Source of the DNA: Nitrosopumilus sp.
Lineage (GTDB): Archaea; Thermoproteota; Nitrososphaeria; Nitrososphaerales; Nitrosopumilaceae
Direction: 5' to 3'
NCBI GenBank assembly: GCA_965207445.1
Contig: CBDBLX010000002.1
Span: forward strand, 2,199,849 to 2,263,848
Length of the DNA stretch: 64,000 nucleotides
Shown piece after piece: positions 8,192-41,067 of this stretch. Position 1 is the first letter of the stretch. Each line of letters starts with the position of its first letter. Under the pieces are notes generated by a model. That model had not been told where the DNA came from. It searched no databases and worked only from the letters and a program-made list of their open reading frames with translations. The position numbers and the translations under genes are program-made.

Positions 8192-8687
8192 ATGCTTTAG
8201 CACGGACTTGAGCACCCTCTTAAAGTCCCGCAGTTCCTTGTCGTCCCGTACGGAAAACGACACGCCCATCATCCCATAGTCTTGAAGGTTATCGTCAAAA
8301 AACGAGTGTCCAGTGCATGCACCCAACCGCGTGTCCCACCAGCAGGGGGACGTCATAAAAGTAGCTGTCATAATAGTCATAGCCGTCATTGCGCCTCTCA
8401 AGGAACCGCACCACTACGACCTTTTCCGGGGCCCGCCTTACCACCAGCATCCTTTTTCTCGCAGTCTTGGCTGCCGGATCTAAACCTTCCAGTATGTCCC
8501 CGTGGTGTAACGCGACGCCGCGCCTGAGCCGGATCTCTGCCCGTCCGCTCGCCTTTGTCCGGACAGCCTGCCTGCCCTTTGCCATGGAGTCCCTGGAGAT
8601 AGTGACGGTGTCATCGGCGCCCGCGCCGCCTCTCTTGTTCCCGCCAGCAAAGACATTGACTATCCTCCTGGTGTATGTGGCGGCCAT
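8192..8687 (-). pseudogene. ureE: UreE-like urease accessory protein, frameshifted and 3'-truncated
   Basis: RTKASGRAEIRLRRGVALHHGDIL...PEKVVVVR...LLVGHAVG.MHW. A +1 frameshift in a T6 run near 8300 continues as FDDNLQDY...; the 3' end abuts a MITE. Confidence 0.6.
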
Positions 8688-9215
8688 GGCTTGCGTCACT
8701 ACCGGGCGCCAATATACATTCCTCCGCACTGCGAGGCAAAAGTAAACCTTGCAATGGGCGAATGCAATGCAGGGTGAGCTGGAGTGGAGGGCTGACCCCG
8801 TCAATTGAGAGCGCTTTTTGGCATGAAAAAGGAAACACCGTCGGTCATTTGTTTGGTTGGGGCCGCGAGGGAGCGGGTGTAAAGTGTGTCAACCCGTGCG
8901 CGAATGGAAGGCGGGCGCGCAGGGCGGGGCGGCAAGGCCACCGCGCCGACCAAGATGTCTTCATACACGCCGCAGGATCTGTATTCACGTTACTCGGCGA
9001 CGTGTCTCGCACCGCGAGAACCACACAAAAGACGGCTCAACCCATTGCCCCATATTCACAACATAAGACGGCTAGAGGAGTACAATCCTGTTCAGGGAAC
9101 GTGTGTCAGACCCAACCGCGTGACGCATCAGCCTTGCCAAAATCCCTCAAGCCTACAAAAGGCACTCCAGATCCAGATATACCTCCTTATATAACGCAAG
9201 GTGTAATGGTGTGCA

Positions 9216-9944
9216 ATGACCACAAAAAATGCACAATACGCCATCTTGGGGGTGGTTGCGATCGCGGCGTTGCTCGTAATGCCCACGGCGCTCAACCAGT
9301 CCGAGGCGCAATCCAGCCCAACGTATGATCCCGAGATGGTCGAATACATACGCACCGTCATCAGCCAGACAGGTACCGCCACGATTACCGAGGCCGACGA
9401 CACACGAAGAGTCACCACCACGAACACGGTCGTGCAGGACGGCTCCACGTACGCCGTGCACACGGTCACCACTGCAGACGGCACCACCATCAACGACGAA
9501 ACCGTGGCCATCACGCAGAACAACGACGGAACGTACAGGTTGGTGAACACGGACAGGAGCATAGACGTGGTATTTACAGACGACGAGAGCGACTACCTGC
9601 AGGGACGTGCATCACAAAGTCTGACGCGGACGATCATCACACTGAGTGATCGCGCTTACGCAGACGAGGGCGAGCTGATTGTCCTAAGTGACGACTACAG
9701 GGGATGCTTGGGCAACTATGCCACATTCACAGCAGCCGTAGACACCACCGACGACACATACATGACATGGAGAGCGCAACCCCAGTTCTTCTCGTACTGC
9801 TTCCTGTATCAAGGGTTCGACCAAGTCAAGATCACGCACGAAGGACACACAGTCTACGATTCGTCAAGGCAGTCCAGCATCGACATGTGGAACGCCAACG
9901 GAGAAGGCTGGTACTCGGCAACGGTCAATGTATACTACAACTAG
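9216..9944 (+). CDS. Secreted hypothetical protein (GC-rich island)
   Basis: N-terminal hydrophobic signal (YAILGVVAIAALLVMPTA), upstream TATA-like ttatata, GC-rich third codon positions. Confidence 0.75.
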   Translation: MTTKNAQYAILGVVAIAALLVMPTALNQSEAQSSPTYDPEMVEYIRTVISQTGTATITEADDTRRVTTTNTVVQDGSTYAVHTVTTADGTTINDETVAITQNNDGTYRLVNTDRSIDVVFTDDESDYLQGRASQSLTRTIITLSDRAYADEGELIVLSDDYRGCLGNYATFTAAVDTTDDTYMTWRAQPQFFSYCFLYQGFDQVKITHEGHTVYDSSRQSSIDMWNANGEGWYSATVNVYYN

Positions 9945-9959
9945 AGGCACCGAGGCATC

Positions 9960-10268
9960 ATGACCAAACCCATCTTCTTTTTTTGGATGATAACGAGCGT
10001 CTGCGCAATGTGCGTCAGTGGGTTTATCGCCGCGCAGAACCTGACGGCGCAGGTAGATGGCATGATGGGTGGGTGGACCTTGTCCTTTTGGGACAGGGTG
10101 TGGACGGACTGGGGCATTCACCTTAGCTTCACGTTTGTAGCCGTTTTTGGCGCGATATTTAGTGCGACATCCTATGCGGCTGTGCAACACGGCATACTGA
10201 CCAGAAATCATGTTATCATAATTCTGATTGGAATCGTATTGTTTACAATCGGCTTGGAATATGCCTAA
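9960..10268 (+). CDS. Small membrane protein (about 3 TM segments)
   Basis: Hydrophobic segments; starts 15 bp after the previous gene. Confidence 0.6.
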   Translation: MTKPIFFFWMITSVCAMCVSGFIAAQNLTAQVDGMMGGWTLSFWDRVWTDWGIHLSFTFVAVFGAIFSATSYAAVQHGILTRNHVIIILIGIVLFTIGLEYA

Positions 10269-10430
10269 ACCGAATCTGCGCACCACCCGAAGGGCCGCTA
10301 TCCGTTCCTCAAACTTGGCCTTGTGCTTGCGCACCACCTTGGACACATTCTCGTTCTCGGCGGCCACCCCGACCAGATCATCGCGCAATATAGCCGTCTC
10401 CGACTTATGCGGGTTGATAGCCACAGTGAT

Positions 10431-10578
10431 GCGTGAACCAAGATCCATGATAAAATGATCATTCAAAAATAGCGCCTAGCCAAATGCAACGCATGCACGA
10501 TACTCAATATACAGGCAAGGGTGTGACCAAATACAAGTATATGATTTCATTATTACGTCCAAAGAGCTTGGTTCACAC
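10431..10578. mobile_element. MITE family 2
   Basis: gcgtgaaccaag...cttggttcacac; same orientation as 7891-8039. Confidence 0.85.
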
Positions 10579-21383: not shown

Positions 21384-23476
21384 GGGTCTTCTGCGTTAAT
21401 CGTTGGTAACTTGCACGTTGCTACCATTGTCGCTTGTGCGACATTGATGCGTCCCGTAATATCACCGTCGTTGCATGACTGGCTCAAGACCCTTGGATTC
21501 ACATGGCAAGGTTGTACAGACTCAGGCCACTGCTCCTCCCATGGCTGCCACGCCAGCATTGCCGATGAGTGTAATCCATTTGTTATTGCCGTGTATTGTT
21601 ATTCCTGCTGCTTCTGCGGGTGTACCTCCTAATGATCCATGTGGACGTACATAGTTGTACCACACACTAAAGCCCATGGCTATGGCAGATTTTGTGCTTT
21701 TGATTCCGCGTCGAGGATTGTAACAGATTCGCTGTATATTGTTAAAACTTTCAATGACATTGTTGTTTCCCTTGTCATGAGTTTTGCTTATTCCTGCTTT
21801 GTCTTTGTGTATACATTGTGTCTTTTTTTGTCGTTGCAATTGTGTAATTTTATCAGGATCTGAAATGTGCTCACAGTGATCATCAAGTGGGCTAAGTTGT
21901 GCGTATACTACTCTAAATGCAACTTTGTATGAGTCAAGATCGTCGCTGATAATCTCTACGGGTATCTTATTTGCACGTATTGCGGCATTTGTAAACAGGC
22001 TCGTTGCATTAAATTCATCCTTTTTACCTCCCAGTTCAATTGCAAGCAATACCCGCGTCTTGTAGTCAATTATAGTAAACAGATAATGCGTTTTATTATC
22101 TATCTTTACATATACTTCATCTACATGAAATCTATCGCCAAGATTTGGTAATGGGAGTTTCATTGTGTATGTATTGATCATTTTGGTGTATTTTGCAATT
22201 GTTCTGAGGATGCTGGTGTGATGTCTTTCTAGTCCTTGGGATTTTAGTGTGTCAGAAATTGCGGGTGATGAGTGTCCTTTGAAATAATCATTTAACATAT
22301 CTGCTACGTCTTTTTTGCTACAACGCATACGTTCCATGCCTGCTCTGTATACAAATACTGCACCACAACCGTCTTTTTTACTACACTGCCATCTTTGTTC
22401 TTTCTTTTTTTGGCCTGTTTCTTTTACAGTCCATTCCTGTGTCCCATATTTGATTATGTGCGTATTATTGCAGTGTTTACACTTTGGAGGGTGTTTTTCA
22501 TCTATTGGGTAGATGTGCGTAGGCTCAACAGAATCTGTAAATTTATCACCACCATTATCACCACCATTATCATCATATAATTCAGATTTTGTTTGTGTGT
22601 CTGTATCTTTTTCTTGCTTTGATTCTGTGTGTGGTAATTGATCACCACCATTATCATCATATAATTCAGATTTTGTTTGTGTGTCTGTATCTTTTTCTTG
22701 CTTTGATTCTGTGTGTGGTAATTGATCACCGCCATCGTATTTTTTGGTACAATATTCTGTAATGGTAGTGCAACGATTTGTAACGTTTGTCTCTTTACTG
22801 TCTATCTCTGATACGTTTTTCATAATTTTTTCTGCTTCATTGTCCACTACATGTGCTGTCACCGCCAAAATGTGTTTACATTTAGCTTTTCTGTATTCGT
22901 AATCAAAGCAGTTACACTCATATCTTCCGGTGGATTTCCGGATAACGTCATACCACAGACCTGGTTGGGACTGCGATTTGACTGCATAATGACCAGATTT
23001 AATGCACGTTATATTCTCTGGTTTTTCCAGTATACGCATGGCTTTTTGGCCTCGTTTTTCTGCGCCCTTGCTCCATGAGACACGTTTTTGCATCCATGTT
23101 GCTAGTCTTACTGTCCTGTCATGTTTTAGTGTAAACCATCCTCTAAATCGTTTAAGACGATCTAGCTTTGGGCGTTTTTGTCCCAAATCATTTGAATCTT
23201 GAACACCATCAGGGTTAAATTCATAATCAGTAATCTTTTGTTGTACACTCTTTGGTCTCATTTTTTCTATCTCAATGAGATCTCACGACGTGTATATTTA
23301 ACGTTCATGTGCAAAAACGATGTCAACACACCCATATTTTGAGAAAATATTCACTAGAATTATACATTATGTGAGATTTTAAATTGTGAATTTTTAAAAA
23401 GTTTATTCAACCACGCCATGAGTATACCTACGGAACTTGCCAGATTTCAGTTACCAACGATTAACGCAGAAGACCC
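21384..23476 (-). mobile_element. IS6-family-like insertion sequence, complete copy 1 (2093 bp)
   Basis: 28-bp IR gggtcttctgcgttaatcgttggtaact; 9-bp TSD gtgtgactt on both sides. Confidence 0.92.
21522..23261 (-). CDS. IS6-like DDE transposase with N-terminal SWIM Zn finger and Zn ribbon
   Basis: SWIM CNC...CKH; CKHC...C; DDE triad FHVDEVYVK / IISDDLDSY / NNVIESFN. Confidence 0.88.
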   Translation of the reverse strand: MRPKSVQQKITDYEFNPDGVQDSNDLGQKRPKLDRLKRFRGWFTLKHDRTVRLATWMQKRVSWSKGAEKRGQKAMRILEKPENITCIKSGHYAVKSQSQPGLWYDVIRKSTGRYECNCFDYEYRKAKCKHILAVTAHVVDNEAEKIMKNVSEIDSKETNVTNRCTTITEYCTKKYDGGDQLPHTESKQEKDTDTQTKSELYDDNGGDQLPHTESKQEKDTDTQTKSELYDDNGGDNGGDKFTDSVEPTHIYPIDEKHPPKCKHCNNTHIIKYGTQEWTVKETGQKKKEQRWQCSKKDGCGAVFVYRAGMERMRCSKKDVADMLNDYFKGHSSPAISDTLKSQGLERHHTSILRTIAKYTKMINTYTMKLPLPNLGDRFHVDEVYVKIDNKTHYLFTIIDYKTRVLLAIELGGKKDEFNATSLFTNAAIRANKIPVEIISDDLDSYKVAFRVVYAQLSPLDDHCEHISDPDKITQLQRQKKTQCIHKDKAGISKTHDKGNNNVIESFNNIQRICYNPRRGIKSTKSAIAMGFSVWYNYVRPHGSLGGTPAEAAGITIHGNNKWITLIGNAGVAAMGGAVA

Positions 23477-25470: not shown

Positions 25471-26022
25471 TTATCTACACGCGGCCTTCGTACTAGTTGG
25501 TTGTGTTGGTTGTGTTGGTTGTGTTGGTTGTGTTGGTTGTGTTGGTTGTGTTGGTTGTGTTGGTTGTGTTGGTTGTGTTGGTTGTGTTGGTTGTGTTGGT
25601 TGTGTTGGTTGTGTTGGTTGTGTTTGTACTGTGATTGTAAAAGTTTTTGTATCTTCAGAAACACCATTTAACACTTTAACTGTAATTTGATGTGTGCCAA
25701 TTTGTTGATTATTTGGTGTCCATGTGAATATGCCTCCTTCCGCTGTGATCGATGCGCCGTCTGGGAATGTTCCAGTCAGACTATAGTTCAATGTGTCAGG
25801 TAGTGGATTTGTGGCAGTAACAGTAAAACTCACTATTGTGCCTACATTGACAGTCTGATTTGGTATTGGGTCTAGTGTTGGGCCAAATTTCGATTGTAAT
25901 TCATCTAGTGTGTCTTGTGCGTCTTGTTGTCCTTGTGTTTCGGTTGCGGTCCAAAAGAGTGTACCAATTATGACAGTCATTGCCAAAAAACTGACTTTGT
26001 GTATAGTCTCTTTTTTGTTCAT
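25471..26022 (-). CDS. Secreted protein: signal peptide, cadherin/He_PIG-like Ig domain, (QPT)n tail
   Basis: Start [20 protein letters not shown]...FTVTATNP...PDGASI...FTWTP...ITVKV. Confidence 0.8.
25496..25622. repeat. 9-bp VNTR (ttggttgtg) x~14 encoding QPT
   Basis: Perfect tandem array visible in the sequence. Confidence 0.95.
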
Positions 26023-26065: not shown

Positions 26066-27558
26066 GGGTCTTCTGCGTTAATCGTTGGTAACTTGCACGT
26101 TGCTACCATTGTCGCTTGTGCGACATTGATGCGTCCCGTAATATCACCGTCGTTGCATGACTGGCTCAAGACCCTTGGATTCACATGACAAGGTTGTACA
26201 GACTCAGGCCACTGCTCCTCCCATGGCTGCCACGCCAGCATTGCCGATGAGTGTAATCCATTTGTTATTGCCGTGTATTGTTATTCCTGCTGCTTCTGCG
26301 GGTGTACCTCCTAATGATCCATGTGGACGTACATAGTTGTACCACACACTAAAGCCCATGGCTATGGCAGATTTTGTGCTTTTGATTCCGCGTCGAGGAT
26401 TGTAACAGATTCGCTGTATATTGTTAAAACTTTCAATGACATTGTTGTTTCCCTTGTCATGAGTTTTGCTTATTCCTGCTTTGTCTTTGTGTATACATTG
26501 TGTCTTTTTTTGTCGTTGCAATTGTGTAATTTTATCAGGATCTGAAATGTGCTCACAGTGATCATCAAGTGGGCTAAGTTGTGCGTATACTACTCTAAAT
26601 GCAACTTTGTATGAGTCAAGATCGTCGCTGATAATCTCTACGGGTATCTTATTTGCACGTATTGCGGCATTTGTAAACAGGCTCGTTGCATTAAATTCAT
26701 CCTTTTTACCTCCCAGTTCAATTGCAAGCAATACCCGCGTCTTGTAGTCAATTATAGTAAACAGATAATGCGTTTTATTATTTATCTTTACATATACTTC
26801 ATCTACATGAAATCTATCGCCAAGATTTGGTAATGGGAGTTTCATTGTGTATGTATTGATCATTTTGGTGTATTTTGCAATTGTTCTGAGGATGCTGGTG
26901 TGATGTCTTTCTAGTCCTTGGGATTTTAGTGTGTCACAAATTGCAGGTGATGAGTGTCCTTTGAAATAGTCATTTAACATATCTGCTACATCTTTTTTGC
27001 TACAACGCATACGTTCCATGCCTGCTCTGTATACAAATACTGCACCACAACCGTCTTTTTTACTACACTGCCATCTTTGTTCTTTCTTTTTTTGGCCTGT
27101 TTCTTTTACAGTCCATTCTTGTGTCCCATATTTGATTATGTGTGTATTATTGCAGTGTTTACACTTTGGAGGGCGTTTTTCATCTATGGGGTAGATGTGT
27201 GTAGGCTCAACAGAATCTGTAAATTTATCACCACCATTATCACCACCATTATCACCACCATTATCACCACCATTATCATCATATAATTCAGATTTTGTTT
27301 GTGTGTCTGTATCTTTTTCTTGCTTTGATTCTGTGTGTGGTAATTGATCACCACCATTATCATCATATAATTCAGATTTTGTTTGTGTGTCTGTATCTTT
27401 TTCTTGCTTTGATTCTGTGTGTGGTAATTGATCACCACCATCATATTTTTTGGTACAATATTCTGTAATGGTAGTGCAACGATTTGTAACGTTTGTCTCT
27501 TTACTGTCTGTCTCCGATACGTTTTTCATAATTTTTTCTGCTTCATTGTCCACTACAT
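26066..27558 (-). mobile_element. IS6-like copy 2, 5'-truncated at the ISH3 element
   Basis: IR at 26066. Transposase lacks the SWIM N-terminus; scattered SNPs and two extra 12-bp GGDN units relative to copy 1. Confidence 0.9.
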
Positions 27559-28949
27559 CAGTAGTTCGCAATGTGTTTTATATGATTTTATTTAAATAAT
27601 CTGCAATGTCGTTGAACGTTGATGATCATATTTGATCAGATCAAATAGAAAGTATAATATGTGGGGACATTTTAGTACCTCTGATAATATATGAAAAATG
27701 AGGTACTAGAACATCAATATGAATTAGGACAAGTAAATTATAAAGTTTTACGAAAACGATTCGACGATCTCGGACTAGACATATCAACCAGATATAACCA
27801 CACGTATGAGGTGGATGATTATCTTGGTACACTTGTCACCATGTCACTCAACAACATGTGCGTAAATGCAGCAACACACAAAAGAAAACGCAATGAGGCT
27901 AACTATTTTAAAAAAGGCGAGCGCATAAACATACCATCTGAAAATACTGTGCTCAAATGCCTAAAGAGTGCAGATCTAGAGAAAGTAAAACAATGGGGTG
28001 ACGAGAATGTCAAAGCAATGCTCAAGAATGCCAAAAAACACAACATGCTCAAAAAAGGCGGTACTATTGCAATTGATATGACCGGATGGGAATATTATGG
28101 CAAGGCACTCAAACCTGAGATGCTAAAAACAAAGCCCAAAAATGGTACTGCGAGATTTCATTCATTTATGACGGCACAAATGGTAAATCAAGCAGGTAAC
28201 ATACCTTTGTTTGCACATCGTGTGACCAGTAAGGATAAAATGGTCACAGTCATGCGTAAAATCATTGAAAAATTAATTCGAGAGGATGCACGTCCGGAAC
28301 TTGGCCTCTTTGATCGGGGTTTTTACAATGTTGCATGCATAGATGAACTTTTGCGCTTGCGCCTGTCTTTCATAATGCCGGCAATTAAAAATAAGCGCAT
28401 ACAAAAATATATTTTAGAAGTTCACAACAAAAAGAGAAAAACTGCATCAGTCATTGAGATGCGTGATAAAAACAAAAAAGCAGTAAAGTTCACATTACTT
28501 ATCGTCAAAAAAAATAATGCCAAAGAAACTGATAAAACGGTCGATCAGTATGTGGCATTTGCCACAAATATGAAAATCACTAGCAAAAGCAAACTCATCA
28601 AAACCATCCCAGAGACTTATCGCAAGCGCTGGATAATAGAGACGGGATACAGAGTGATAAAAAACACGACTCCAAAGACAACTAGCAACGCCTTGCAGCT
28701 TCGATTACTGTTGATATTTTTTGGAATGTTATTATATGGTTTATGGGTAATGGCAAGGTACGAAAATTACGGTGGACTTGTAGATGAAAAATTATTTACA
28801 ATGGATGCGTTTGTAGATTCAATTGCCGGTTCAATCAGAAGACTGCTTCGGTGGGAATTGGAGCACGGTGGTTCCTTACCATTGTAAATCTGTCGCACTG
28901 CATAATTAGAAATAAGATCATTAAAAATTGAGCACATTGCGAACTACTG
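27559..28949 (+). mobile_element. ISH3-family (IS4 superfamily) element
   Basis: Perfect 17-bp IR cagtagttcgcaatgtg / cacattgcgaactactg; acat on both sides. Confidence 0.88.
27691..28887 (+). CDS. ISH3-family transposase
   Basis: IAIDMT, LFDRGFY, YRKRWIIETGYR (YREK motif). Confidence 0.9.
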   Translation: MKNEVLEHQYELGQVNYKVLRKRFDDLGLDISTRYNHTYEVDDYLGTLVTMSLNNMCVNAATHKRKRNEANYFKKGERINIPSENTVLKCLKSADLEKVKQWGDENVKAMLKNAKKHNMLKKGGTIAIDMTGWEYYGKALKPEMLKTKPKNGTARFHSFMTAQMVNQAGNIPLFAHRVTSKDKMVTVMRKIIEKLIREDARPELGLFDRGFYNVACIDELLRLRLSFIMPAIKNKRIQKYILEVHNKKRKTASVIEMRDKNKKAVKFTLLIVKKNNAKETDKTVDQYVAFATNMKITSKSKLIKTIPETYRKRWIIETGYRVIKNTTPKTTSNALQLRLLLIFFGMLLYGLWVMARYENYGGLVDEKLFTMDAFVDSIAGSIRRLLRWELEHGGSLPL

Positions 28950-28999
28950 ACATAGAGTCTGCAGATATGTGTTTGTGTGCCTGTGCAGCCTGACTCCTC

Positions 29000-29431: not shown

Positions 29432-29466
29432 AGATTTCAGTTACCAACGATTAACGCAGAAGATCC
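29432..29466 (-). mobile_element. Isolated IS6-like terminal repeat (5'-end type, GGATC variant)
   Basis: agatttcagttaccaacgattaacgcagaagatcc. Confidence 0.85.
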
Positions 29467-29474
29467 TTATAGTG

Positions 29475-30815
29475 TCAACTGTATAACGTGATTATAAGAT
29501 TCACAATTCTGTTAATCTCTGTTATTGTGGCGTTTAGTGTGTCGTATGCCTTCTGGAGTGCATCATACTTCTCTTGGAGTGTGTTCAGGGTCATGTTATA
29601 TTCTGCTTGCAGAATGATTCGTTGTTGTTTTAAAGCGTTGTCTACGTATGCTTGATCAAATGGTGTTGGGTCTGTTTTCATGTTTACTGGCGGTGTTTCT
29701 AAATCTGATTGTGGTGGTGGTGTGGGTGGTGGCGTATTGATGACTATTGTTCTTGTTTCTGTTTCTGTGTTTCCTGCGTTGTCTGTGCATGTGTATGCTA
29801 TAGTTTGCATGCCTGTATTTGTTGTGTTGATATTGGTTGCGTTGGATGTGATTGTTGTGATAATTCCATCATTTTTATCAAAACATATTGCTCCTTCATC
29901 TTTGTATGTAACACCTTGAGTTATGTCAGTGTTGTTAAATCCAATTAGTACAATTATTGGTGGCGTTGTGTCGGGCGTTGGTGGCGTTGGTGGCGTTGGT
30001 GGCGGTTCACTTTGTGGTTTGAAAAATGTTTCAAAAGGTACATGATCTGCTAGAATATACTCCCAGTATCTTGTTATTTGGTAATATTGTTCGGGGCATG
30101 AACGTGATTTTTCTAAGGTTAAACTGCCATCAAATAGTAAGTAGTTGTTGTAAACAGGATCTGAACCGTATGACCAACACGCAATGTTAGAAAACCGTTT
30201 CAAGTCTGTGTCATGTGTGCTTGTATAATCAGCTCCGCTATCAAGGTACAAGAAAAAATATTGTGTGTTGTATAGCATGTCATGTCCTAAATTAGGATGT
30301 AGATCTGTTTGTATAACTGCTGTTAACATAGTTGCAAATTGATCAGCAACAGTCTCCTCATTTCCTGAAAATGGCAAGTCGTAAATATCTAAAATTGCGT
30401 GTGCAATTTCATGGTAAAGTATGAAGTATGTAACGTCTTGTGTAAAAAACATGTCTAGATTATATGTATATTGTATTCTGTCTAGGTCGTCTATTAGTTC
30501 ATAACATATGACTATTTTTTTTTCTAATGGATAATAGTATGCATTTTCTGCACCACATTCCTGTGCATAGATTATAACATCATATGGTAAGTTGAAATTT
30601 TCGTTAAGCCATTTTACTTCATCATCTATTAAGTGTGTATTTTGTAACCATTCTGCGTTTGTTATTGTATATGGTGAATTAGGGTTGGGACCATAAATTA
30701 TTTTGAAGTCACCATTATCAACAGTGACTGTTTGAGCTTGTGTACTTGTAATGTTTATGGTCATTAGTATTACTATTACAAATAATCCAAATATTGCATA
30801 TGGTGTGTATTTCAA
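29475..30815 (-). CDS. Secreted putative Zn-metallopeptidase (DUF4344-like) + DUF5011-like Ig domain + shared C-terminal coiled-coil module
   Basis: Signal peptide; NAYYYP...ICYEL, HEIAH (HExxH), EETVADQFA; DTTPPII...TDNAGN; tail PFDQAYVDNALKQQ...IITLYS. Confidence 0.85.
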   Translation of the reverse strand: MKYTPYAIFGLFVIVILMTINITSTQAQTVTVDNGDFKIIYGPNPNSPYTITNAEWLQNTHLIDDEVKWLNENFNLPYDVIIYAQECGAENAYYYPLEKKIVICYELIDDLDRIQYTYNLDMFFTQDVTYFILYHEIAHAILDIYDLPFSGNEETVADQFATMLTAVIQTDLHPNLGHDMLYNTQYFFLYLDSGADYTSTHDTDLKRFSNIACWSYGSDPVYNNYLLFDGSLTLEKSRSCPEQYYQITRYWEYILADHVPFETFFKPQSEPPPTPPTPPTPDTTPPIIVLIGFNNTDITQGVTYKDEGAICFDKNDGIITTITSNATNINTTNTGMQTIAYTCTDNAGNTETETRTIVINTPPPTPPPQSDLETPPVNMKTDPTPFDQAYVDNALKQQRIILQAEYNMTLNTLQEKYDALQKAYDTLNATITEINRIVNLIITLYS

Positions 30816-30947
30816 TTATGTTGTGTTTTTTTGGTACTGTTTAAATATTTATTTAAGCATGATGGTGTTTTGGACTATGCGGGTTGTGTCAAAAGATGTG
30901 ATCTGTGAGTTATATCGTAAAAATGGCTTTTTGATCATTAACAAGTG

Positions 30948-32480
30948 TCAACTGTATAACGTGATTATAAGATTCACGATTCTGTTAATCTCTGCTATTG
31001 TAGCGTTTAGTGTGTCGTATGCCTTCTGGAGTACATCATACTTATCTTGTAGTCTATCATACTTATCTTGTAGTATGTTCAATGTTGTGTTATGCGCTGC
31101 TTGCAGCATGGTTCGTTGTTGTTTTAAAGCGTTGTCTACGTATGCTTGATCAAATGGTGTTGGGTCTTGTGTGTTTGTATTATTGGTTGGCGGTGTGGTT
31201 ACCGAGAAGTGACTTACAATACCAGATATTGCACCTGGTGAACTATAGTCAATCTCAAAGCTACGGTTTCTATCAGCGTCATCTCTTACCACTAGGTTGG
31301 ACCTTTGGTCTTCTGCCCAGTTGAGAAATACATCATTGTTAGAGCCATCCTCTACAAATCCGATTACAAAGTTATCTGCTGTAAATATTTCACTTGCAGC
31401 AGCATTGGTGATGTTGTCAGTTGGTACACAAGCACCATTACTGTCATCATTACTCACCAAGTAATCCATATTTGCATTACTCGCATCTTGTATTCCAAAG
31501 TCTTTTGTGACTTGGCAGTCAATCAAAGGATCACCGCCTTGTCCGTTACGAACTATGGATATCTGTTCACCAATTCCAGCAGAACCTGCATAGTCAACAA
31601 TTGTCAAATCTCTGATATTATCAGGTGTGCCGTCCTCATCAAACAAGTTGTAATAAGCAGCTCCGTTTTGAGTATCAAATGCCCACATATCCTCATCAGT
31701 AGGATCTATGTTTAGTGCATAGTCATTTATCGTGACAAGTACGTGTGCGCTTTGTGGATATCGCTCACTGTTTAGTGAGTGTGATTCTGATGGGTCATCT
31801 AATGTTAGTGTGACTGTCTGTTGACCACCTTTCTCATACACAATTCTGACATCGCTTTGTGAAGCAAAGTCAAAGACCTGTATGAATGGCCACAAGTTAT
31901 CATTTGCAAGTCCGAGCTGACCGATTGTATCCCCATTGGGGTTCCAATCAGTTAGAGTTCTAGTCTCCCTTATCAGAGGGTGACTAGTATCACCGGGAAG
32001 TGCTGCACAATTCTCATTAACTGAACCTGGAGGAAAGTAGACACCGTTTGTGTCACTTAGCTGCAGAGTTGAAACAGTGCTTGCATCACTTGCAGAACAA
32101 AACACACCATAGTCTAGTTGTCCGTTCATTGTATCGATATCTGCAAGAGCATCGGCTTGTGCAAAGTATGCACGCCAGTTACCGTCGCCGGTTTGCAACA
32201 TTCGCAAATCAGCACCATTTACGGTTACGGTAGGCTCAGCCTCACTCTCACCAGTATCTCCGATTGTACTATCTAAAATTATAATTTCTATAATGTTTCC
32301 TTCGGCAAATTGATTGTCAGCGTCTTGACCTTCTGCAGATACATACAGGTTTGCATTAGTTTGGTCCACAGCAGCGTATGCTACGGGTGCAGTACCTGGT
32401 ATTGCAAAGGTAAGCCCACCGGCAACCATAATTGCCATTAATGTTAGGCTAGTATATTTTCTGTAATTTTCGTTTTGCAT
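30948..32480 (-). CDS. Chimeric protein: N-terminal ~430 aa of a thaumarchaeal S-layer protein (SlaA-like) + shared C-terminal coiled-coil module
   Basis: RKYTSLTLMAIMVAGGLTFAIPG...NANLYVSAE...EPTVTVNG..LRM.Q..DGNW.AYFA...WPFIQ...LNIDPTDED.W is the Nitrosopumilus-type S-layer N-terminus as I recall it. Confidence 0.85.
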   Translation of the reverse strand: MQNENYRKYTSLTLMAIMVAGGLTFAIPGTAPVAYAAVDQTNANLYVSAEGQDADNQFAEGNIIEIIILDSTIGDTGESEAEPTVTVNGADLRMLQTGDGNWRAYFAQADALADIDTMNGQLDYGVFCSASDASTVSTLQLSDTNGVYFPPGSVNENCAALPGDTSHPLIRETRTLTDWNPNGDTIGQLGLANDNLWPFIQVFDFASQSDVRIVYEKGGQQTVTLTLDDPSESHSLNSERYPQSAHVLVTINDYALNIDPTDEDMWAFDTQNGAAYYNLFDEDGTPDNIRDLTIVDYAGSAGIGEQISIVRNGQGGDPLIDCQVTKDFGIQDASNANMDYLVSNDDSNGACVPTDNITNAAASEIFTADNFVIGFVEDGSNNDVFLNWAEDQRSNLVVRDDADRNRSFEIDYSSPGAISGIVSHFSVTTPPTNNTNTQDPTPFDQAYVDNALKQQRTMLQAAHNTTLNILQDKYDRLQDKYDVLQKAYDTLNATIAEINRIVNLIITLYS

Positions 32481-32560
32481 GTTATTATTGATTTTTCACG
32501 GAAATTTCCTTATAAGCGTGATGAACAATTGAGGATCTTCTGCGTTAATCGTTGGTAACT

Positions 32561-34717
32561 GTAACGTGTCACCTCCCCCCACCGCATCGTGCCTAAATAA
32601 GTTCATACTAACACGAATATCATCTTAGTGAGCATATGTATTATCTGCGGAAAAACACATCTCACAGGAAATGTACCCGTCTACAACACTGTACGCGCAT
32701 TATGATGTAACGTAATTTGAGATATTACTAGTACTCTAAGCAAGTGACAAAAGTAAAGTTAACGTGGTTGGGCATTTACGTTTTCATTGTGGTGCATATA
32801 CAGGGGGCATTTTTCTGGACATGTGGATAAAGCCAACCTTGTGAGGTTTACATCTTGGTGCAATGACAACAAGTATAGTAGAAACTACAACATGCGAATA
32901 AAACCAACCCTGTTAGGTTTACATGTATCATAGATTCATGCTGAAAAGAGTCGCAACAATTCTATATTTGGATCTTTGTCTTGAGCTTTCCATGTCATCA
33001 GAACGCTTGCAATGACACAGTATCTTTTGGCCCCCTCCATCCCCCAAAACCAAAAACTCGAATTCCGTTTGAGTACAAATGGACGTATTCCTCGCTCTGC
33101 TATGTTATTTGTAAGTGACATCTCAGGGTATTGTACTGCAGTAAACAAGTGATCGGAGCAGTTGAATAAATATCTGCCAGATTTAGCTCCACGGTCTAGT
33201 AATTGTTCACCGATAGTTTTCACAAGTTTGATGAGTCCGTTTATTTTAGTTGTGGGTGTGTCTGGTGGCAGTGTTTTTGTGTAGTGATATATGGCCATAA
33301 CTATTCCATACAGGTATGTTGCAGTCGGATCCTTTATCTTTACAGTGTTGTTTTTAATCTTGGTCTTTACATGCGCCCAGCATAATTGATACGTATCAAA
33401 GCAATTGTATGAGGGTGCTGCATCACGTGTCACTTTCAAGTGGGGATACGGATTGGCTTGTTTTACATCATCCATTGAGCGGGATGATAGGGCCTGATAT
33501 TGAATCCATATTTTGTCACCGATTGTAATTCCTAGCCTGCCACTCTTTTTGCCAATCTTTACTGGTGTGTCATCAATATTTCCTGCTGTACTATTTCCGA
33601 TCTCTTTGCCTATACGCTCGTACTCAGAAGCTTTGCAGCTGCTGCCTTTAGTCCTTTTCGTAAAGTATCATGAGCAAATCTTTTGTGATAGTGTATCTCG
33701 ACATCATCAGCAAGTTGGTTCATTGTGTGGACATTAAGTGATGCGCGCGTGAGTTTAACAAGAAAGTGTTGTCCAAATGAAGTATCTGGTATTATAGAAT
33801 CATGCATGCAGTTTATGCTACCACAATTCTCACACCAATATACACGCATGTGACACCATATCTCCTCTAGTTCATTATGGTCGTCGAGTTCATGTAATGT
33901 CTTGTATTCCTCATAAGCTTGCTCTATTTCACAATCACATTCAGGGCATGTGTCTAGTTCAATATCAAATGTTTTGTCTGGATTAAATCGTCTAAATGAT
34001 GGATCGTGTTTTAAAGGTGGTCCCAGTTTGGCAGGTGGTTTGTCTTGCGCTGCTTTTTCTGCACGGTCTTGTTTCTCTTTTTGTATCTGTTTTTGTGTCA
34101 CTGTTTTGTGAGATGTAGGCGTGGCGCCATCGTCATTTGCAGCATCTCTGCGCTCTAAATCTGCAACGCGTCGCTTGGATTCTTCTAGTTGTGCTAATAG
34201 TTCTTGATTTTTGTCTGTAATAATTTTGCATTCATTTCTCATCACGTCTCCATACTGTGCAGTAGATTTTGCCAAATCTTCAAGTATCAGCTCACGTGAT
34301 GTATACCTACCAGTCTGCGCCATAAATGCCAATTTCTGATTTACTAGTATGATGTCAAGTTCTCTTCCACCTAATCTATCAAGTAACTTCCTATTCTCTT
34401 CTTTCAATATATTGGTCTCTTTTTCTTTCTCTTTGAAGTTCTTTTTCAAACTAGCATTTTCATTCAAAACTTGGGACATTGCCTCGTCATAGCTGATCGA
34501 ATCTACATCGACTTTGTTAAATAATTCATCTGTAACTACCTTTTGTTGCTGCATACATTTACTCATTTTTTCTCTATATGAGTAAATGGCAGTATACGTA
34601 TTTAACTACCCGCATACTTTTTTTGCGCCATCTCACAATTTTAGGGATTTATGACGATATCTGTGTGTGTCCATGCCTAGTCCACGTGGTATAAAGAGGG
34701 GGGAGGTGACACGTTAC
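32561..34717 (-). mobile_element. IS66-family element
   Basis: Perfect 20-bp IR gtaacgtgtcacctcccccc; no TSD. Confidence 0.88.
32936..34566 (-). pseudogene. IS66 transposase with one frameshift near 33620
   Basis: Coiled coil, CPEC...CENC finger, then in the other frame NIDDT, TRDAAPSY, QLCWAHV, TNNIAERGIRP. Confidence 0.8.
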
Positions 34718-34802
34718 AAAAAGTTTATTCAACCACGCCATGAGTATACCTACGAAACTTGCCAGATTTCAGTTACCAACGATTAACGCAGAAGACCCAA
34801 TG

Positions 34803-36341
34803 TTAACTGTATAGTGCGATTATGAGATTCACAACTCTATTGATCTCTTCTATGGTGGCATATAGTGTGTCATATGTCTCTTGGAGTGTATTATAATTCT
34901 CTTGGAGTGTATTATACTTCTCTTGGAGTGTATTATACTTCTCTTGGAGTGTATTTAGTGTTGTATTATACTCTGCTTGTAGTATGTCTTGTTGTTGTTT
35001 TAAAGCGGTGTCTACATATGCTTGATCAAATGGCGTTGTGTCTTGTGTGTTTGTATTATTGGTGGGTGGTGTGACTACTGGTGGTGTCGGTGTCTCTGCT
35101 GGTGTTGTGCGGGTTATCTCAACACTGCATGTATCCCATGTGCCTGAATATCTTATGAAATCTTCTTCATAGTATGATAATTGTGGTTGTAAATTAGTCG
35201 TAAGTGAGTTTTTTGATGTGAGTTTGACTCCATTTTGATCATGTAAGAATAATGTGTAGTAGACGGCTCTGTATTCCTGTGAATCTCGGTTTATGAACGT
35301 GGTATTAATGTCAATAGAATCGCCGAATCCTTCTGAACATTTTGTAATAGTTGTGTCTATATTGCCTATTGGTGGTGTCGGTGTCTCTGCTGGTGTTGTG
35401 CGGGTTATCTCAACACTGCATGTATCCCATGTGCCTGAATATCTTATGAAATCTTCTTCATAGTATGATAATTGTGGTTGTAAATTAGTCGTAAGTGAGT
35501 TTTTTGATGTGAGTTTGACTCCATTTTGATCATGTAAGAATAATGTGTAGTAGACGGCTCTGTATTCCTGTGAATCTCGGTTTATGAACGTGGTATTAAT
35601 GTCAATAGAATCGCCGAATCCTTCTGAACATTTTGTAATAGTTGTGTCTATATTGCCTATTGGTGGTGTCGGTGTCTCTGCTGGTGTTGTGCGGGTTATC
35701 TCAACACTGCATGTATCCCATGTGCCTGAATATCTTATGAAATCTTCTTCATAGTATGATAATTGTGGTTGTAAATTAGTCGTAAGTGAGTTTTTTGATG
35801 TGAGTTTGACTCCATTTTGATCATGTAAGAATAATGTGTAGTAGACGGCTCTGTATTCCTGTGAATCTCGGTTTATGAACGTGGTATTAATGTCAATAGA
35901 ATCGCCGAATCCTTCTGAACATTTTGTAATAGTTGTGTCTATATTGCCTATTGGTGGTGTCGGTGTCTCTGCTGGTGTTGTGCGGGTTATCTCAACACTG
36001 CATGTATCCCATGTGCCTGAATATCTTATGAAATCTTCTTCATAGTATGATAATTGTGGTTGTAAATTAGTCGTAAGTGAGTTTTTTGATGTGAGTTTGA
36101 CTCCATTTTGATCATGTAAGAATAATGTGTAGTAGACGGCTCTGTATTCCTGTGAATCTCGGTTTATGAACGTGGTATTAATGTCAATAGAATCGCCGAA
36201 TCCTTCTGAACATTTTGTAATAGTTGTGTCTATATTGCCTATTGGTGGTGTCTGCGCTTGTGCTTGTACCGCGCCTGTGGTCATTAGAGCCACTACAGCA
36301 ATGAGTCCCATTATGGTGGTCATGTACCGTCTTGTGTTCAT
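34803..36341 (-). CDS. Secreted protein with 4 identical 97-aa Ig-like (FxLYD-like) repeats + shared C-terminal coiled-coil module
   Basis: Signal peptide ending AQA; repeats contain YTLFLHDQNG and a Cys pair; tail PFDQAYVDTALKQQ...IIALYS. Confidence 0.85.
   Translation of the reverse strand: MNTRRYMTTIMGLIAVVALMTTGAVQAQAQTPPIGNIDTTITKCSEGFGDSIDINTTFINRDSQEYRAVYYTLFLHDQNGVKLTSKNSLTTNLQPQLSYYEEDFIRYSGTWDTCSVEITRTTPAETPTPPIGNIDTTITKCSEGFGDSIDINTTFINRDSQEYRAVYYTLFLHDQNGVKLTSKNSLTTNLQPQLSYYEEDFIRYSGTWDTCSVEITRTTPAETPTPPIGNIDTTITKCSEGFGDSIDINTTFINRDSQEYRAVYYTLFLHDQNGVKLTSKNSLTTNLQPQLSYYEEDFIRYSGTWDTCSVEITRTTPAETPTPPIGNIDTTITKCSEGFGDSIDINTTFINRDSQEYRAVYYTLFLHDQNGVKLTSKNSLTTNLQPQLSYYEEDFIRYSGTWDTCSVEITRTTPAETPTPPVVTPPTNNTNTQDTTPFDQAYVDTALKQQQDILQAEYNTTLNTLQEKYNTLQEKYNTLQENYNTLQETYDTLYATIEEINRVVNLIIALYS
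35080..36252. repeat. 291-bp tandem repeat x4, apparently identical
   Basis: ggtggtgtc recurs at 35080, 35371, 35662, 35953 and 36244. Confidence 0.95.
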
Positions 36342-38974: not shown

Positions 38975-41067
38975 GGGTCTTCTGCGTTAATCGTTGGTAA
39001 CTGAAATCTGGCAAGTTCCGTAGGTATACTCATGGCGTGGTTGAATAAACTTTTTAAAAATTCACAATTTAAAATCTCACATAATGTATAATTCTAGTGA
39101 ATATTTTCTCAAAATATGGGTGTGTTGACATCGTTTTTGCACATGAACGTTAAATATACACGTCGTGAGATCTCATTGAGATAGAAAAAATGAGACCAAA
39201 GAGTGTACAACAAAAGATTACTGATTATGAATTTAACCCTGATGGTGTTCAAGATTCAAATGATTTGGGACAAAAACGCCCAAAGCTAGATCGTCTTAAA
39301 CGATTTAGAGGATGGTTTACACTAAAACATGACAGGACAGTAAGACTAGCAACATGGATGCAAAAACGTGTCTCATGGAGCAAGGGCGCAGAAAAACGAG
39401 GCCAAAAAGCCATGCGTATACTGGAAAAACCAGAGAATATAACGTGCATTAAATCTGGTCATTATGCAGTCAAATCGCAGTCCCAACCAGGTCTGTGGTA
39501 TGACGTTATCCGGAAATCCACCGGAAGATATGAGTGTAACTGCTTTGATTACGAATACAGAAAAGCTAAATGTAAACACATTTTGGCGGTGACAGCACAT
39601 GTAGTGGACAATGAAGCAGAAAAAATTATGAAAAACGTATCAGAGATAGACAGTAAAGAGACAAACGTTACAAATCGTTGCACTACCATTACAGAATATT
39701 GTACCAAAAAATACGATGGCGGTGATCAATTACCACACACAGAATCAAAGCAAGAAAAAGATACAGACACACAAACAAAATCTGAATTATATGATGATAA
39801 TGGTGGTGATCAATTACCACACACAGAATCAAAGCAAGAAAAAGATACAGACACACAAACAAAATCTGAATTATATGATGATAATGGTGGTGATAATGGT
39901 GGTGATAAATTTACAGATTCTGTTGAGCCTACGCACATCTACCCAATAGATGAAAAACACCCTCCAAAGTGTAAACACTGCAATAATACGCACATAATCA
40001 AATATGGGACACAGGAATGGACTGTAAAAGAAACAGGCCAAAAAAAGAAAGAACAAAGATGGCAGTGTAGTAAAAAAGACGGTTGTGGTGCAGTATTTGT
40101 ATACAGAGCAGGCATGGAACGTATGCGTTGTAGCAAAAAAGACGTAGCAGATATGTTAAATGATTATTTCAAAGGACACTCATCACCCGCAATTTCTGAC
40201 ACACTAAAATCCCAAGGACTAGAAAGACATCACACCAGCATCCTCAGAACAATTGCAAAATACACCAAAATGATCAATACATACACAATGAAACTCCCAT
40301 TACCAAATCTTGGCGATAGATTTCATGTAGATGAAGTATATGTAAAGATAGATAATAAAACGCATTATCTGTTTACTATAATTGACTACAAGACGCGGGT
40401 ATTGCTTGCAATTGAACTGGGAGGTAAAAAGGATGAATTTAATGCAACGAGCCTGTTTACAAATGCCGCAATACGTGCAAATAAGATACCCGTAGAGATT
40501 ATCAGCGACGATCTTGACTCATACAAAGTTGCATTTAGAGTAGTATACGCACAACTTAGCCCACTTGATGATCACTGTGAGCACATTTCAGATCCTGATA
40601 AAATTACACAATTGCAACGACAAAAAAAGACACAATGTATACACAAAGACAAAGCAGGAATAAGCAAAACTCATGACAAGGGAAACAACAATGTCATTGA
40701 AAGTTTTAACAATATACAGCGAATCTGTTACAATCCTCGACGCGGAATCAAAAGCACAAAATCTGCCATAGCCATGGGCTTTAGTGTGTGGTACAACTAT
40801 GTACGTCCACATGGATCATTAGGAGGTACACCCGCAGAAGCAGCAGGAATAACAATACACGGCAATAACAAATGGATTACACTCATCGGCAATGCTGGCG
40901 TGGCAGCCATGGGAGGAGCAGTGGCCTGAGTCTGTACAACCTTGCCATGTGAATCCAAGGGTCTTGAGCCAGTCATGCAACGACGGTGATATTACGGGAC
41001 GCATCAATGTCGCACAAGCGACAATGGTAGCAACGTGCAAGTTACCAACGATTAACGCAGAAGACCC
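38975..41067 (+). mobile_element. IS6-like insertion sequence, second complete copy (2093 bp)
   Basis: Same IRs as copy 1; 9-bp TSD ttgtttaat; inverted relative to copy 1. Confidence 0.92.
39190..40929 (+). CDS. IS6-like SWIM-DDE transposase
   Basis: Protein identical to 21522-23261. Confidence 0.88.
   Translation: MRPKSVQQKITDYEFNPDGVQDSNDLGQKRPKLDRLKRFRGWFTLKHDRTVRLATWMQKRVSWSKGAEKRGQKAMRILEKPENITCIKSGHYAVKSQSQPGLWYDVIRKSTGRYECNCFDYEYRKAKCKHILAVTAHVVDNEAEKIMKNVSEIDSKETNVTNRCTTITEYCTKKYDGGDQLPHTESKQEKDTDTQTKSELYDDNGGDQLPHTESKQEKDTDTQTKSELYDDNGGDNGGDKFTDSVEPTHIYPIDEKHPPKCKHCNNTHIIKYGTQEWTVKETGQKKKEQRWQCSKKDGCGAVFVYRAGMERMRCSKKDVADMLNDYFKGHSSPAISDTLKSQGLERHHTSILRTIAKYTKMINTYTMKLPLPNLGDRFHVDEVYVKIDNKTHYLFTIIDYKTRVLLAIELGGKKDEFNATSLFTNAAIRANKIPVEIISDDLDSYKVAFRVVYAQLSPLDDHCEHISDPDKITQLQRQKKTQCIHKDKAGISKTHDKGNNNVIESFNNIQRICYNPRRGIKSTKSAIAMGFSVWYNYVRPHGSLGGTPAEAAGITIHGNNKWITLIGNAGVAAMGGAVA

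Follow-up and report, generated by a model that had tools for sequence, protein, structure and literature searches.

Three exported proteins sharing a predicted coiled-coil tail, one of them grafted with an S-layer hub unit, in a Nitrosopumilus genome

Three co-oriented genes on the minus strand of a 64-kb stretch of Nitrosopumilus DNA (the window; G000:C2:2199849-2263848, on contig 2 of the genome G000) encode exported proteins with different bodies, all of which end in a Pro/Thr linker followed by the same C-terminal tail. We call these genes g1, g2, and g3; positions given without a contig name are positions in the window. The reading that we favor, with slightly more belief than doubt, is that they form a tandem family whose linker and tail are private to one species, that the tail is predicted to gather the heads into an oligomer by forming a parallel coiled-coil stalk about 9-11 nm long, and that the heads were probably exchanged by rare, ordinary recombination, the products being kept by selection. 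The genome (2.6 Mb in two contigs, 96% complete) is rich in insertion sequences (IS), and a second assembly, a 153,776-bp contig, carries counterparts of all three genes: P0041 (g1), P0038 (g2), and P0040 (g3). The locus is a dated, two-strain example of the birth of a surface module and of the grafting of an S-layer hub at a structural boundary, and it bears on S-layer anchoring and on the display of enzymes and adhesins in ammonia-oxidizing archaea, anchoring being left unresolved in PMC11153153. Should only the favored reading hold, it remains a neat local example of domains shuffled in a genome rich in IS.

Three bodies and one tail

An earlier note on this DNA had described three intact genes with a metallopeptidase, an S-layer fragment, and Ig repeats as their heads, and we find all three where it placed them. 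The 446-aa product of g1 (29475-30815, TTG start) consists of a signal peptide (30735-30815), a DUF4344 metallopeptidase domain (about 30051-30662; PF14247, 151 bits against a cut-off of 29.6), a Bact_surface_Ig-like domain (about 29742-29948; 37.8 bits, cut-off 27), a Pro/Thr linker (29664-29735), and the tail (29478-29663). The HExxH residues H135, E136, and H139 and the downstream Glu pair at 153-154 of this predicted protease are intact in both assemblies. Of the 19 amino acid differences between g1 and P0041, 7 sit in residues 161-185 (30261-30335), just past these motifs, and this cluster is possibly a substrate-side hypervariable patch or a recombined tract. The second gene, g2 (30948-32480; 510 aa), starts with the signal peptide and N-terminal hub unit of the S-layer protein SlaA (residues 1-425), which continue in frame into the linker (31158-31205) and the tail (30951-31157). 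In g3 (34803-36341; 512 aa counted from the ATG), a signal peptide (36255-36341) is followed by four 97-aa Ig-like beta-sandwich repeats (about 35072-36233), encoded by four 291-nt units that differ from one another by 0-2 nt, and then by the linker (35034-35081) and the tail (34806-35033). The g3 repeat unit matches no named Pfam or NCBIfam family above cut-off; its model is a six-stranded Ig-like beta-sandwich (pLDDT 93) that resembles DUF1425 and IrmA (TM 0.63-0.66) and a GH2 Ig domain (Z 9.6, rmsd 2.0, 83 aligned residues), and its best ESM Atlas matches (0.90) are clusters without names.

The bodies of the three proteins are mutually unrelated (blastp E 1.4 or worse), as the note had claimed, but its extension of this to the whole secreted heads does not hold for the leaders of g1 and g3. 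These two signal peptides are 42% identical over 33 aa and are reciprocal best matches among 405 hydrophobic N-termini, and the alignment of the corresponding 5' DNA scores above all 500 shuffles, narrowly (89 vs. 83). With a related leader, a related tail, and a different middle, g1 and g3 therefore look like paralogues whose middles were replaced.

Counted from the PFDQ motif, the tails are 62 (g1), 69 (g2), and 76 (g3) aa long and 78-84% identical, and they differ by zero, one, and two additional 7-residue units, which in g3 appear as near-perfect 21-nt tandem units; the shortest, in g1, would span about 9 nm as a single helix. Local alignment scores of 225-249 far exceed the maximum of 89-113 reached in 2000 heptad-preserving shuffles per pair, confirming the shared tail after the linker. 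As the note had proposed, the module has the marks of a coiled coil. In the C-terminal half, heptad positions a are L, Y, Y, (Y, Y), I, V, Y and positions d are L, L, L, (L, L), I, I, and a single-sequence model of g1 has a continuous helix at 388-445 with a pLDDT of 73-83 in the last 40 residues, the sole confident part of a model whose mean pLDDT is 43. Regular heptads together with a continuous helix are what a parallel coiled-coil oligomerization domain displays, and oligomerization is predicted on these grounds. By the coiled-coil rules that link a and d residues to trimers, Tyr/Ile/Val at a and Leu/Ile at d would make a trimer our guess. An N-glycosylation sequon at the identical tail position in all three proteins is as expected for an extracellular location.

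The tail is under purifying selection, with dN/dS of 0.20 for g1-g3 and 0.22 for g2-g3 at a dS of about 0.62 (Fisher p below 0.0001). Conservation is higher at its two ends, one of them with a hydrophobic tip, than in its middle. It is not a membrane helix, and the anchor that the earlier note considered, if taken to mean such a helix, fails on hydropathy: the best 19-residue value is 0.98-1.11, against 1.86-3.16 in 14 PEFG- or GGCLIATA-type tails of the same genome, so that by this measure the tail lacks the membrane helix of the PEFG-CTERM and CFI-box-CTERM sorting signals. It ends in LYS before the stop codon, with no sorting-signal motif and no basic residues behind the tip.

We searched for the tail in G000, 60 relatives, 150 congeneric genomes, a set of 1.84 billion representative proteins, and a 5.8-billion set. 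G000 holds three copies only, none occurs in the 60 relatives, and the 150 congeners give no true match, the one spurious hit (G082, E 0.004) lying on the opposite strand of another gene and containing an internal stop. No Pfam or NCBIfam family scores above its cut-off, in keeping with the note, which had not recognized the tail as a named domain; the best match below cut-off is a coiled coil at 19.5 bits. HMMER over the 1.84 billion proteins returned 24 matches, 2 of them the window's own, and all 18 inspected among the 22 others were rejected as generic LQxxYxxL heptads without the PFDQAY or INR..NL ends. The 5.8-billion set, with 29 and 2808 candidates, yielded self matches only, apart from one crab repeat protein (31%), the single additional match of the search for longer proteins, which we discarded. 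Pattern scans of metagenome, genome, and viral contigs gave 158, 83, and 64 matches, respectively, of which not one was confirmed; the best ESM Atlas score was 0.75, with no lead; and in the literature covered, outside which most subscription papers fall, we found no description of the tail or of a hub-only SlaA fusion. By these sequence comparisons the tail module is new, and present data confine it to one species. The note had counted confinement to these three genes, if coupled with a lack of expression, against its own proposal, and this is the distribution found, with the counterparts in the second assembly as the only addition.

The S-layer graft and its mobile surroundings

The 5' part of g2 is a close copy of slaA. 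A 1328-nt tract (31205-32532, minus strand) is 96.9% identical to G000:C2:339179-340506, including an identical 52-nt stretch upstream of the start codon, and the native gene is intact elsewhere in the genome (G000:C2:339231-346919, L011; 2562 aa, with inserted Bact_surface_Ig-like repeats). Over 1275 bases, the g2 head and slaA show 41 differences (dS 0.065), with a dN/dS of 0.37 (p 0.002). Short-read unitigs, from three runs of one sample that is possibly the source sample of the genome, start exactly at 31205 and stop at 32532, with 1.6-1.9 times single-copy depth over the copy. An IS6-like inverted repeat bounds the copy on the 5' side; on the 3' side it is joined in frame, with about 1 nt of microhomology. 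The copy ends with residue F425, which is aligned to S455 of NmSLP, the Nitrosopumilus maritimus S-layer protein to whose residues 1-455 the g2 head is homologous (E 2e-51; native SlaA, E 8e-63). Residues 35-455 of NmSLP, which would correspond to domains 1-2, were refined separately in C2, and its N terminus forms a two-fold central pore, according to PMC11153153. NmSLP runs to 1734 residues, and the g2 head, which stops at the counterpart of residue 455, is without the full lattice-building Ig array. At residue 426, P0038 has a Pro like that of the g3 linker, marking the start of the module.

Several observations concern SlaA more widely. Mixed evidence comes from the sites that distinguish g2, P0038, SlaA, and the SlaA variant P0039: three are g2-specific, two (115 and 227) are shared with this genome's SlaA, and one conflicts, a weak hint that gene conversion may have acted between g2 and slaA. 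P0039 itself (2808 aa) is near-identical to SlaA at both ends and highly divergent in the middle (74% overall), a hypervariable S-layer insert. No hub-only SlaA fusion occurs among the SlaA matches listed in 105 other genomes (49 matches are unlisted), and six short SlaA-like frames in relatives were set aside, five of them as contig ends and the sixth as an 870-aa protein with a different ending. A 470-aa secreted protein at G000:C2:136754-138166 is the mirror image of g2, consisting of the C-terminal part of SlaA only (52% identity to residues 2188-2562). In G000, slaA is flanked by urease genes. A promoter scan found 36 sites against 27.6 expected, from a bacterial model that is uninformative for an archaeon.

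We propose the following order of events. An ancestral signal peptide-body-linker-tail gene would have duplicated, g3 splitting off first (tail dS about 0.62) and g1 and g2 later (dS about 0.17). Bodies would then have been replaced, and in g2 the whole 5' part would have been exchanged for slaA (dS 0.065), with the 5' edge set by an IS6-like element and the hub boundary fused in frame by an illegitimate join. The stalk would give avidity to a protease (g1), to an Ig-repeat, adhesin-like protein (g3), and to a soluble or lattice-associated fragment of the S-layer hub (g2).

IS remnants surround the three genes. IS6-like ends lie at 29432-29466, 8 nt past the g1 stop; at 34718-34798, 4 nt past the g3 stop; and at 32533-32560, 52 nt ahead of the g2 start codon, where the slaA copy is bounded on its 5' side. 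An IS66-family element (32561-34717, minus strand), frame-broken and with no target duplication seen, separates g3 from g2, and a truncated IS6-like element (26066-27558) is interrupted by a DDE_Tnp_1 element (27558-28950) that has 21 genome copies of at least 60% length. The note had reported tail similarity at the DNA level, which we find to extend to 4 nt beyond the stop codon; the adjoining 35-nt repeat after the g1 and g3 stops is not part of the tail module but an IS6-like terminal inverted repeat with 22 genome copies, and for this reason we rejected it as an attC- or shufflon-type site. The flanking element's transposase scores 54.8 bits for DDE_Tnp_IS240 (cut-off 27) and 83 bits for NCBIfam IS6, under the cut-off of 125. 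Only 1 pair of target duplications is seen among the 22 IS6-like ends, which fits intramolecular transposition of the IS6 type, a process that deletes or inverts neighboring DNA, as PMC7986276 describes. That the IS ends stop just outside the genes suggests that deletions reaching into the genes were not tolerated. A preference of these ends for stop codons was considered and dropped: beyond g1 and g3, 2 of 20 other ends touch the 3' end of an open reading frame, making the position uncommon, not unique. Further IS6-like elements in the window (21384-23476 and 38975-41067) are 2.1 kb long and encode a 579-aa transposase with an N-terminal extension and internal Asp/Gly repeats, both element and enzyme being far longer than in typical IS6 members.

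The joins themselves appear to be real and stable. In the second assembly each head is paired with its tail as here, with the same lengths and joins, at 23 (g2), 6 (g3), and 19 (g1) amino acid differences, so that neither misassembly, which the note had named as a possible undoing of its proposal, nor fast swapping accounts for them. Unitigs bridge the joins of g1 (29644-30883) and g3 (34926-35108) without mismatch, none crosses the g2 join itself among the rows listed, and the depth of the g3 repeat unitigs is about 4-5.6 times single copy. The three head-tail junctions have no common recombination site, the only inverted repeats being IS ends. In the genome, of which 96% is covered, serine recombinases (PF00239) give no match and tyrosine recombinases (PF00589) a single match below cut-off, at C2:471284, 1.76 Mb distant; silent heads or spare tails are absent. 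In contigs of four runs, which drop rare variants, no alternative joints between the three genes occur. The absence of a nearby recombinase, a common site, spare parts, and partner change makes a programmed swap unlikely. What remains of the note's idea that heads are swapped at the linker is that SlaA 1-425 was grafted there; an active swapping system is not supported.

Weighing the alternatives

Several points weigh against the reading we favor. The N-terminal third of the tail has no consistent heptad register, and the g1-g2 comparison of tails (dN/dS 0.51, p 0.23, at a dS of about 0.17) is not significant. That none of the nine tail substitutions between the assemblies hits an a or d position speaks for the reading, if only marginally (about 0.05 if the core makes up 2/7 of the sites). 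A purely soluble oligomer leaves the greater conservation of the tail ends unexplained, and the order of events, which rests on three sequences, may be blurred by gene conversion.

An S-layer docking role, which we consider rather unlikely, would have g2 join the assembling S-layer by way of its SlaA hub and recruit g1 and g3 through mixed coiled coils. The break after F425 coincides with the end of the unit refined separately in NmSLP, residues 35-455, as given in PMC11153153; a break at a domain boundary is also expected, however, if only foldability was selected. The slaA upstream DNA is unchanged in g2, and the comparison of the head with slaA gives a dN/dS of 0.37 (p 0.002), although a ratio below 1 can arise from selection on slaA alone. 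Sites 115 and 227 group g2 with its own SlaA and P0038 with the other SlaA variant, hinting that conversion keeps the copy in step; against this, three sites are g2-specific and one conflicts, and P0039 is of uncertain strain. Near-identical tail ends would permit mixing among the paralogues, and there is a precedent for a protease on an S-layer coiled coil in tetrabrachion-STABLE, as outlined in PMC5744192. On the other side, the tails of g1 and g3 are much older than the capture of slaA (dS 0.62 vs. 0.065), so the tail did not evolve for docking; a hub-only subunit would presumably leave holes in the lattice; and no fusion of D1-D2 only is found among the SlaA matches listed in the 105 other genomes. 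In the boldest version of this idea, to which we give little credence, g2 would be a natural display adaptor, a pore-hub unit expressed from a copied slaA promoter that clips a metalloprotease and an Ig-repeat adhesin onto the lattice, and which relatives reinvented with a SlaB-derived coiled coil. Were docking true, the locus would supply a ready S-layer display design and a direct test of the self-assembly of the hub unit.

It is also unlikely that the tail is a tether or sorting signal, that is, a stalk holding the head off the cell with its hydrophobic tip in the membrane or an envelope component, as a stand-in for a SlaB-like pillar. The tail is strictly C-terminal, ends at the stop codon, and has a conserved tip with an 11-residue hydropathy of 1.6-1.8; no other anchor is visible in g1, g2, or g3, and other shared C-terminal modules of the genome include membrane anchors. 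The 19-residue hydropathy, however, is well below that of the 14 anchor-type tails, no basic cluster stands behind the tip, and the tip continues the heptad pattern. Nor is there similarity to SlaB (hhalign 0.5%), of which an intact orthologue-like gene is present.

It is quite improbable that the locus is mostly neutral debris, in which the chimeras left by IS activity and tandem duplication are unexpressed or useless, or that the assembly is simply wrong. The genes are private to one species and lodged among at least five IS pieces, and the g2-join unitig is absent among the rows listed. All three frames, however, are intact and of equal length in the second assembly despite 23, 6, and 19 differences, the tail evolves at a dN/dS of about 0.2, unitigs bridge the g1 and g3 joins without mismatch, and the IS ends spare the genes, keeping 4 and 8 nt clear of the stops and 52 nt clear of the g2 start.

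Programmed diversification would mean that heads are exchanged at the Pro/Thr linker within the population by a shufflon- or cassette-like system. It would fit three heads on one tail, joins that all fall at the linker, and a P0041 tail whose residues typical of g2 and g3 hint at conversion among tails. It is largely refuted, and we regard it as very improbable: the joins have no site in common (that of slaA shows about 1 nt of microhomology), no recombinase lies nearby, the genome is without silent heads or spare tails, the contigs of four runs, which drop rare variants, contain no joint linking one of the three genes to another, and the pairs are unchanged in the second assembly.

Relatives and known systems

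The favored reading, that of an oligomerizing stalk, gains from a parallel in four of the 150 congeners (G100, G112, G152, and G156). Here another coiled coil, 40 aa long, stands between a Pro/Thr linker and DUF4344 or a g3-type Ig unit, at G152:C1:569000-575000; G156:C1:12900-20000 and C2:47600-54800; G100:C1:17500; and G112:C14:1650 (L023, L030-L033, L022, L019, L013). Like the tail, it is joined to DUF4344, Bact_surface_Ig-like, and g3-type Ig units by a Pro/Thr linker; unlike the tail, which is C-terminal, it precedes the head, and it is absent from G000 and non-homologous (hhalign 0.9%). The same heads have thus joined a coiled coil twice, which favors an oligomerizing role. The stalk of SlaB is similar to the relatives' coiled coil (hhalign 61%, E 8e-5). 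The SlaA proteins closest to that of G000 (63-66%) are those of G152 and G156, and in these two genomes the coiled-coil genes lie directly upstream of slaA. Across the four congeners we also observe this coiled coil shuffled among Fn3, DUF4344, and Ig-like domains beside slaA.

Among characterized proteins, NmSLP (Nmar_1547; PDB 8C8K) is the closest to g2, whose residues 1-425 are homologous to its N-terminal central-pore part; g2 lacks the remaining lattice-contact Ig domains and instead continues into the coiled-coil tail (PMC11153153). SlaB of Sulfolobales and Nitrososphaerota, in the accounts given in PMC5744192 and PMC11153153, has exported beta-sandwich heads followed by a C-terminal coiled coil, as at this locus. 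SlaB ends in a membrane helix, however, which the tail lacks, and the two cannot be aligned: hhalign gives 0.5% against the SlaB-like gene of G158, so called from its slaA-adjacent position and its architecture. An intact SlaB-like orthologue in G000 (C2, 2167333-2168241), with a membrane helix and an RRR end, led us to reject g2 as a stand-in for a lost SlaB; this gene is not beside slaA, unlike its counterparts in G158 and N. maritimus. The nearest precedent for attaching a protease to an S-layer via a coiled coil, and for how the locus may work, is tetrabrachion-STABLE of Staphylothermus marinus, as described in PMC5744192. In this archaeal surface complex a subtilisin is bound to the side of a tetrameric stalk 70 nm long, whereas each head at the present locus has a short coiled coil of its own by fusion.

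Shared C-terminal modules are common in the genome: by the same test we find three families, among them an IPxWV-type tail on 10 proteins with 9 head types and a GGCLIATA-type tail on 7 proteins with 6, and such families go by the names PEFG-CTERM, CFI-box-CTERM, and IPxWV-type tail. These Nitrosopumilaceae modules also place one tail behind many unrelated heads after a Pro/Thr-rich linker. They are widespread and scattered over the genome, and two have membrane helices, whereas the present tail is a predicted coiled coil in one tandem locus of one species. Shufflons and S-layer cassette switching, as in R64 pilV and Campylobacter fetus sap, likewise join a constant part to alternative variable parts of surface proteins. 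In contrast to these systems, the locus has no recombinase, recombination sites, or silent cassettes, and no switching is seen between the two assemblies. The tail would act as a short oligomerization tag or stalk fused to its heads, and it belongs neither to the membrane-helix sorting signals nor to SlaB or the shufflons. Sponge-associated Nitrosopumilaceae are reported to have expanded S-layer paralogues, Ig-like DUF5011 domains, and an enrichment of transposases, and the main-text passages of PMC6790972 and PMC7848895 concerned with these, supplements apart, make no mention of such a tail.

Two further features of the window are of minor note. Just beyond an IS6-like end, 25471-26020 encodes a secreted protein with a He_PIG Ig domain and 14 PTQ repeats that stops abruptly and may have lost a C-terminal module. 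A G+C-rich island (53%, against 39% for the genome) at 8295-10466 also carries the gene for a secreted protein.

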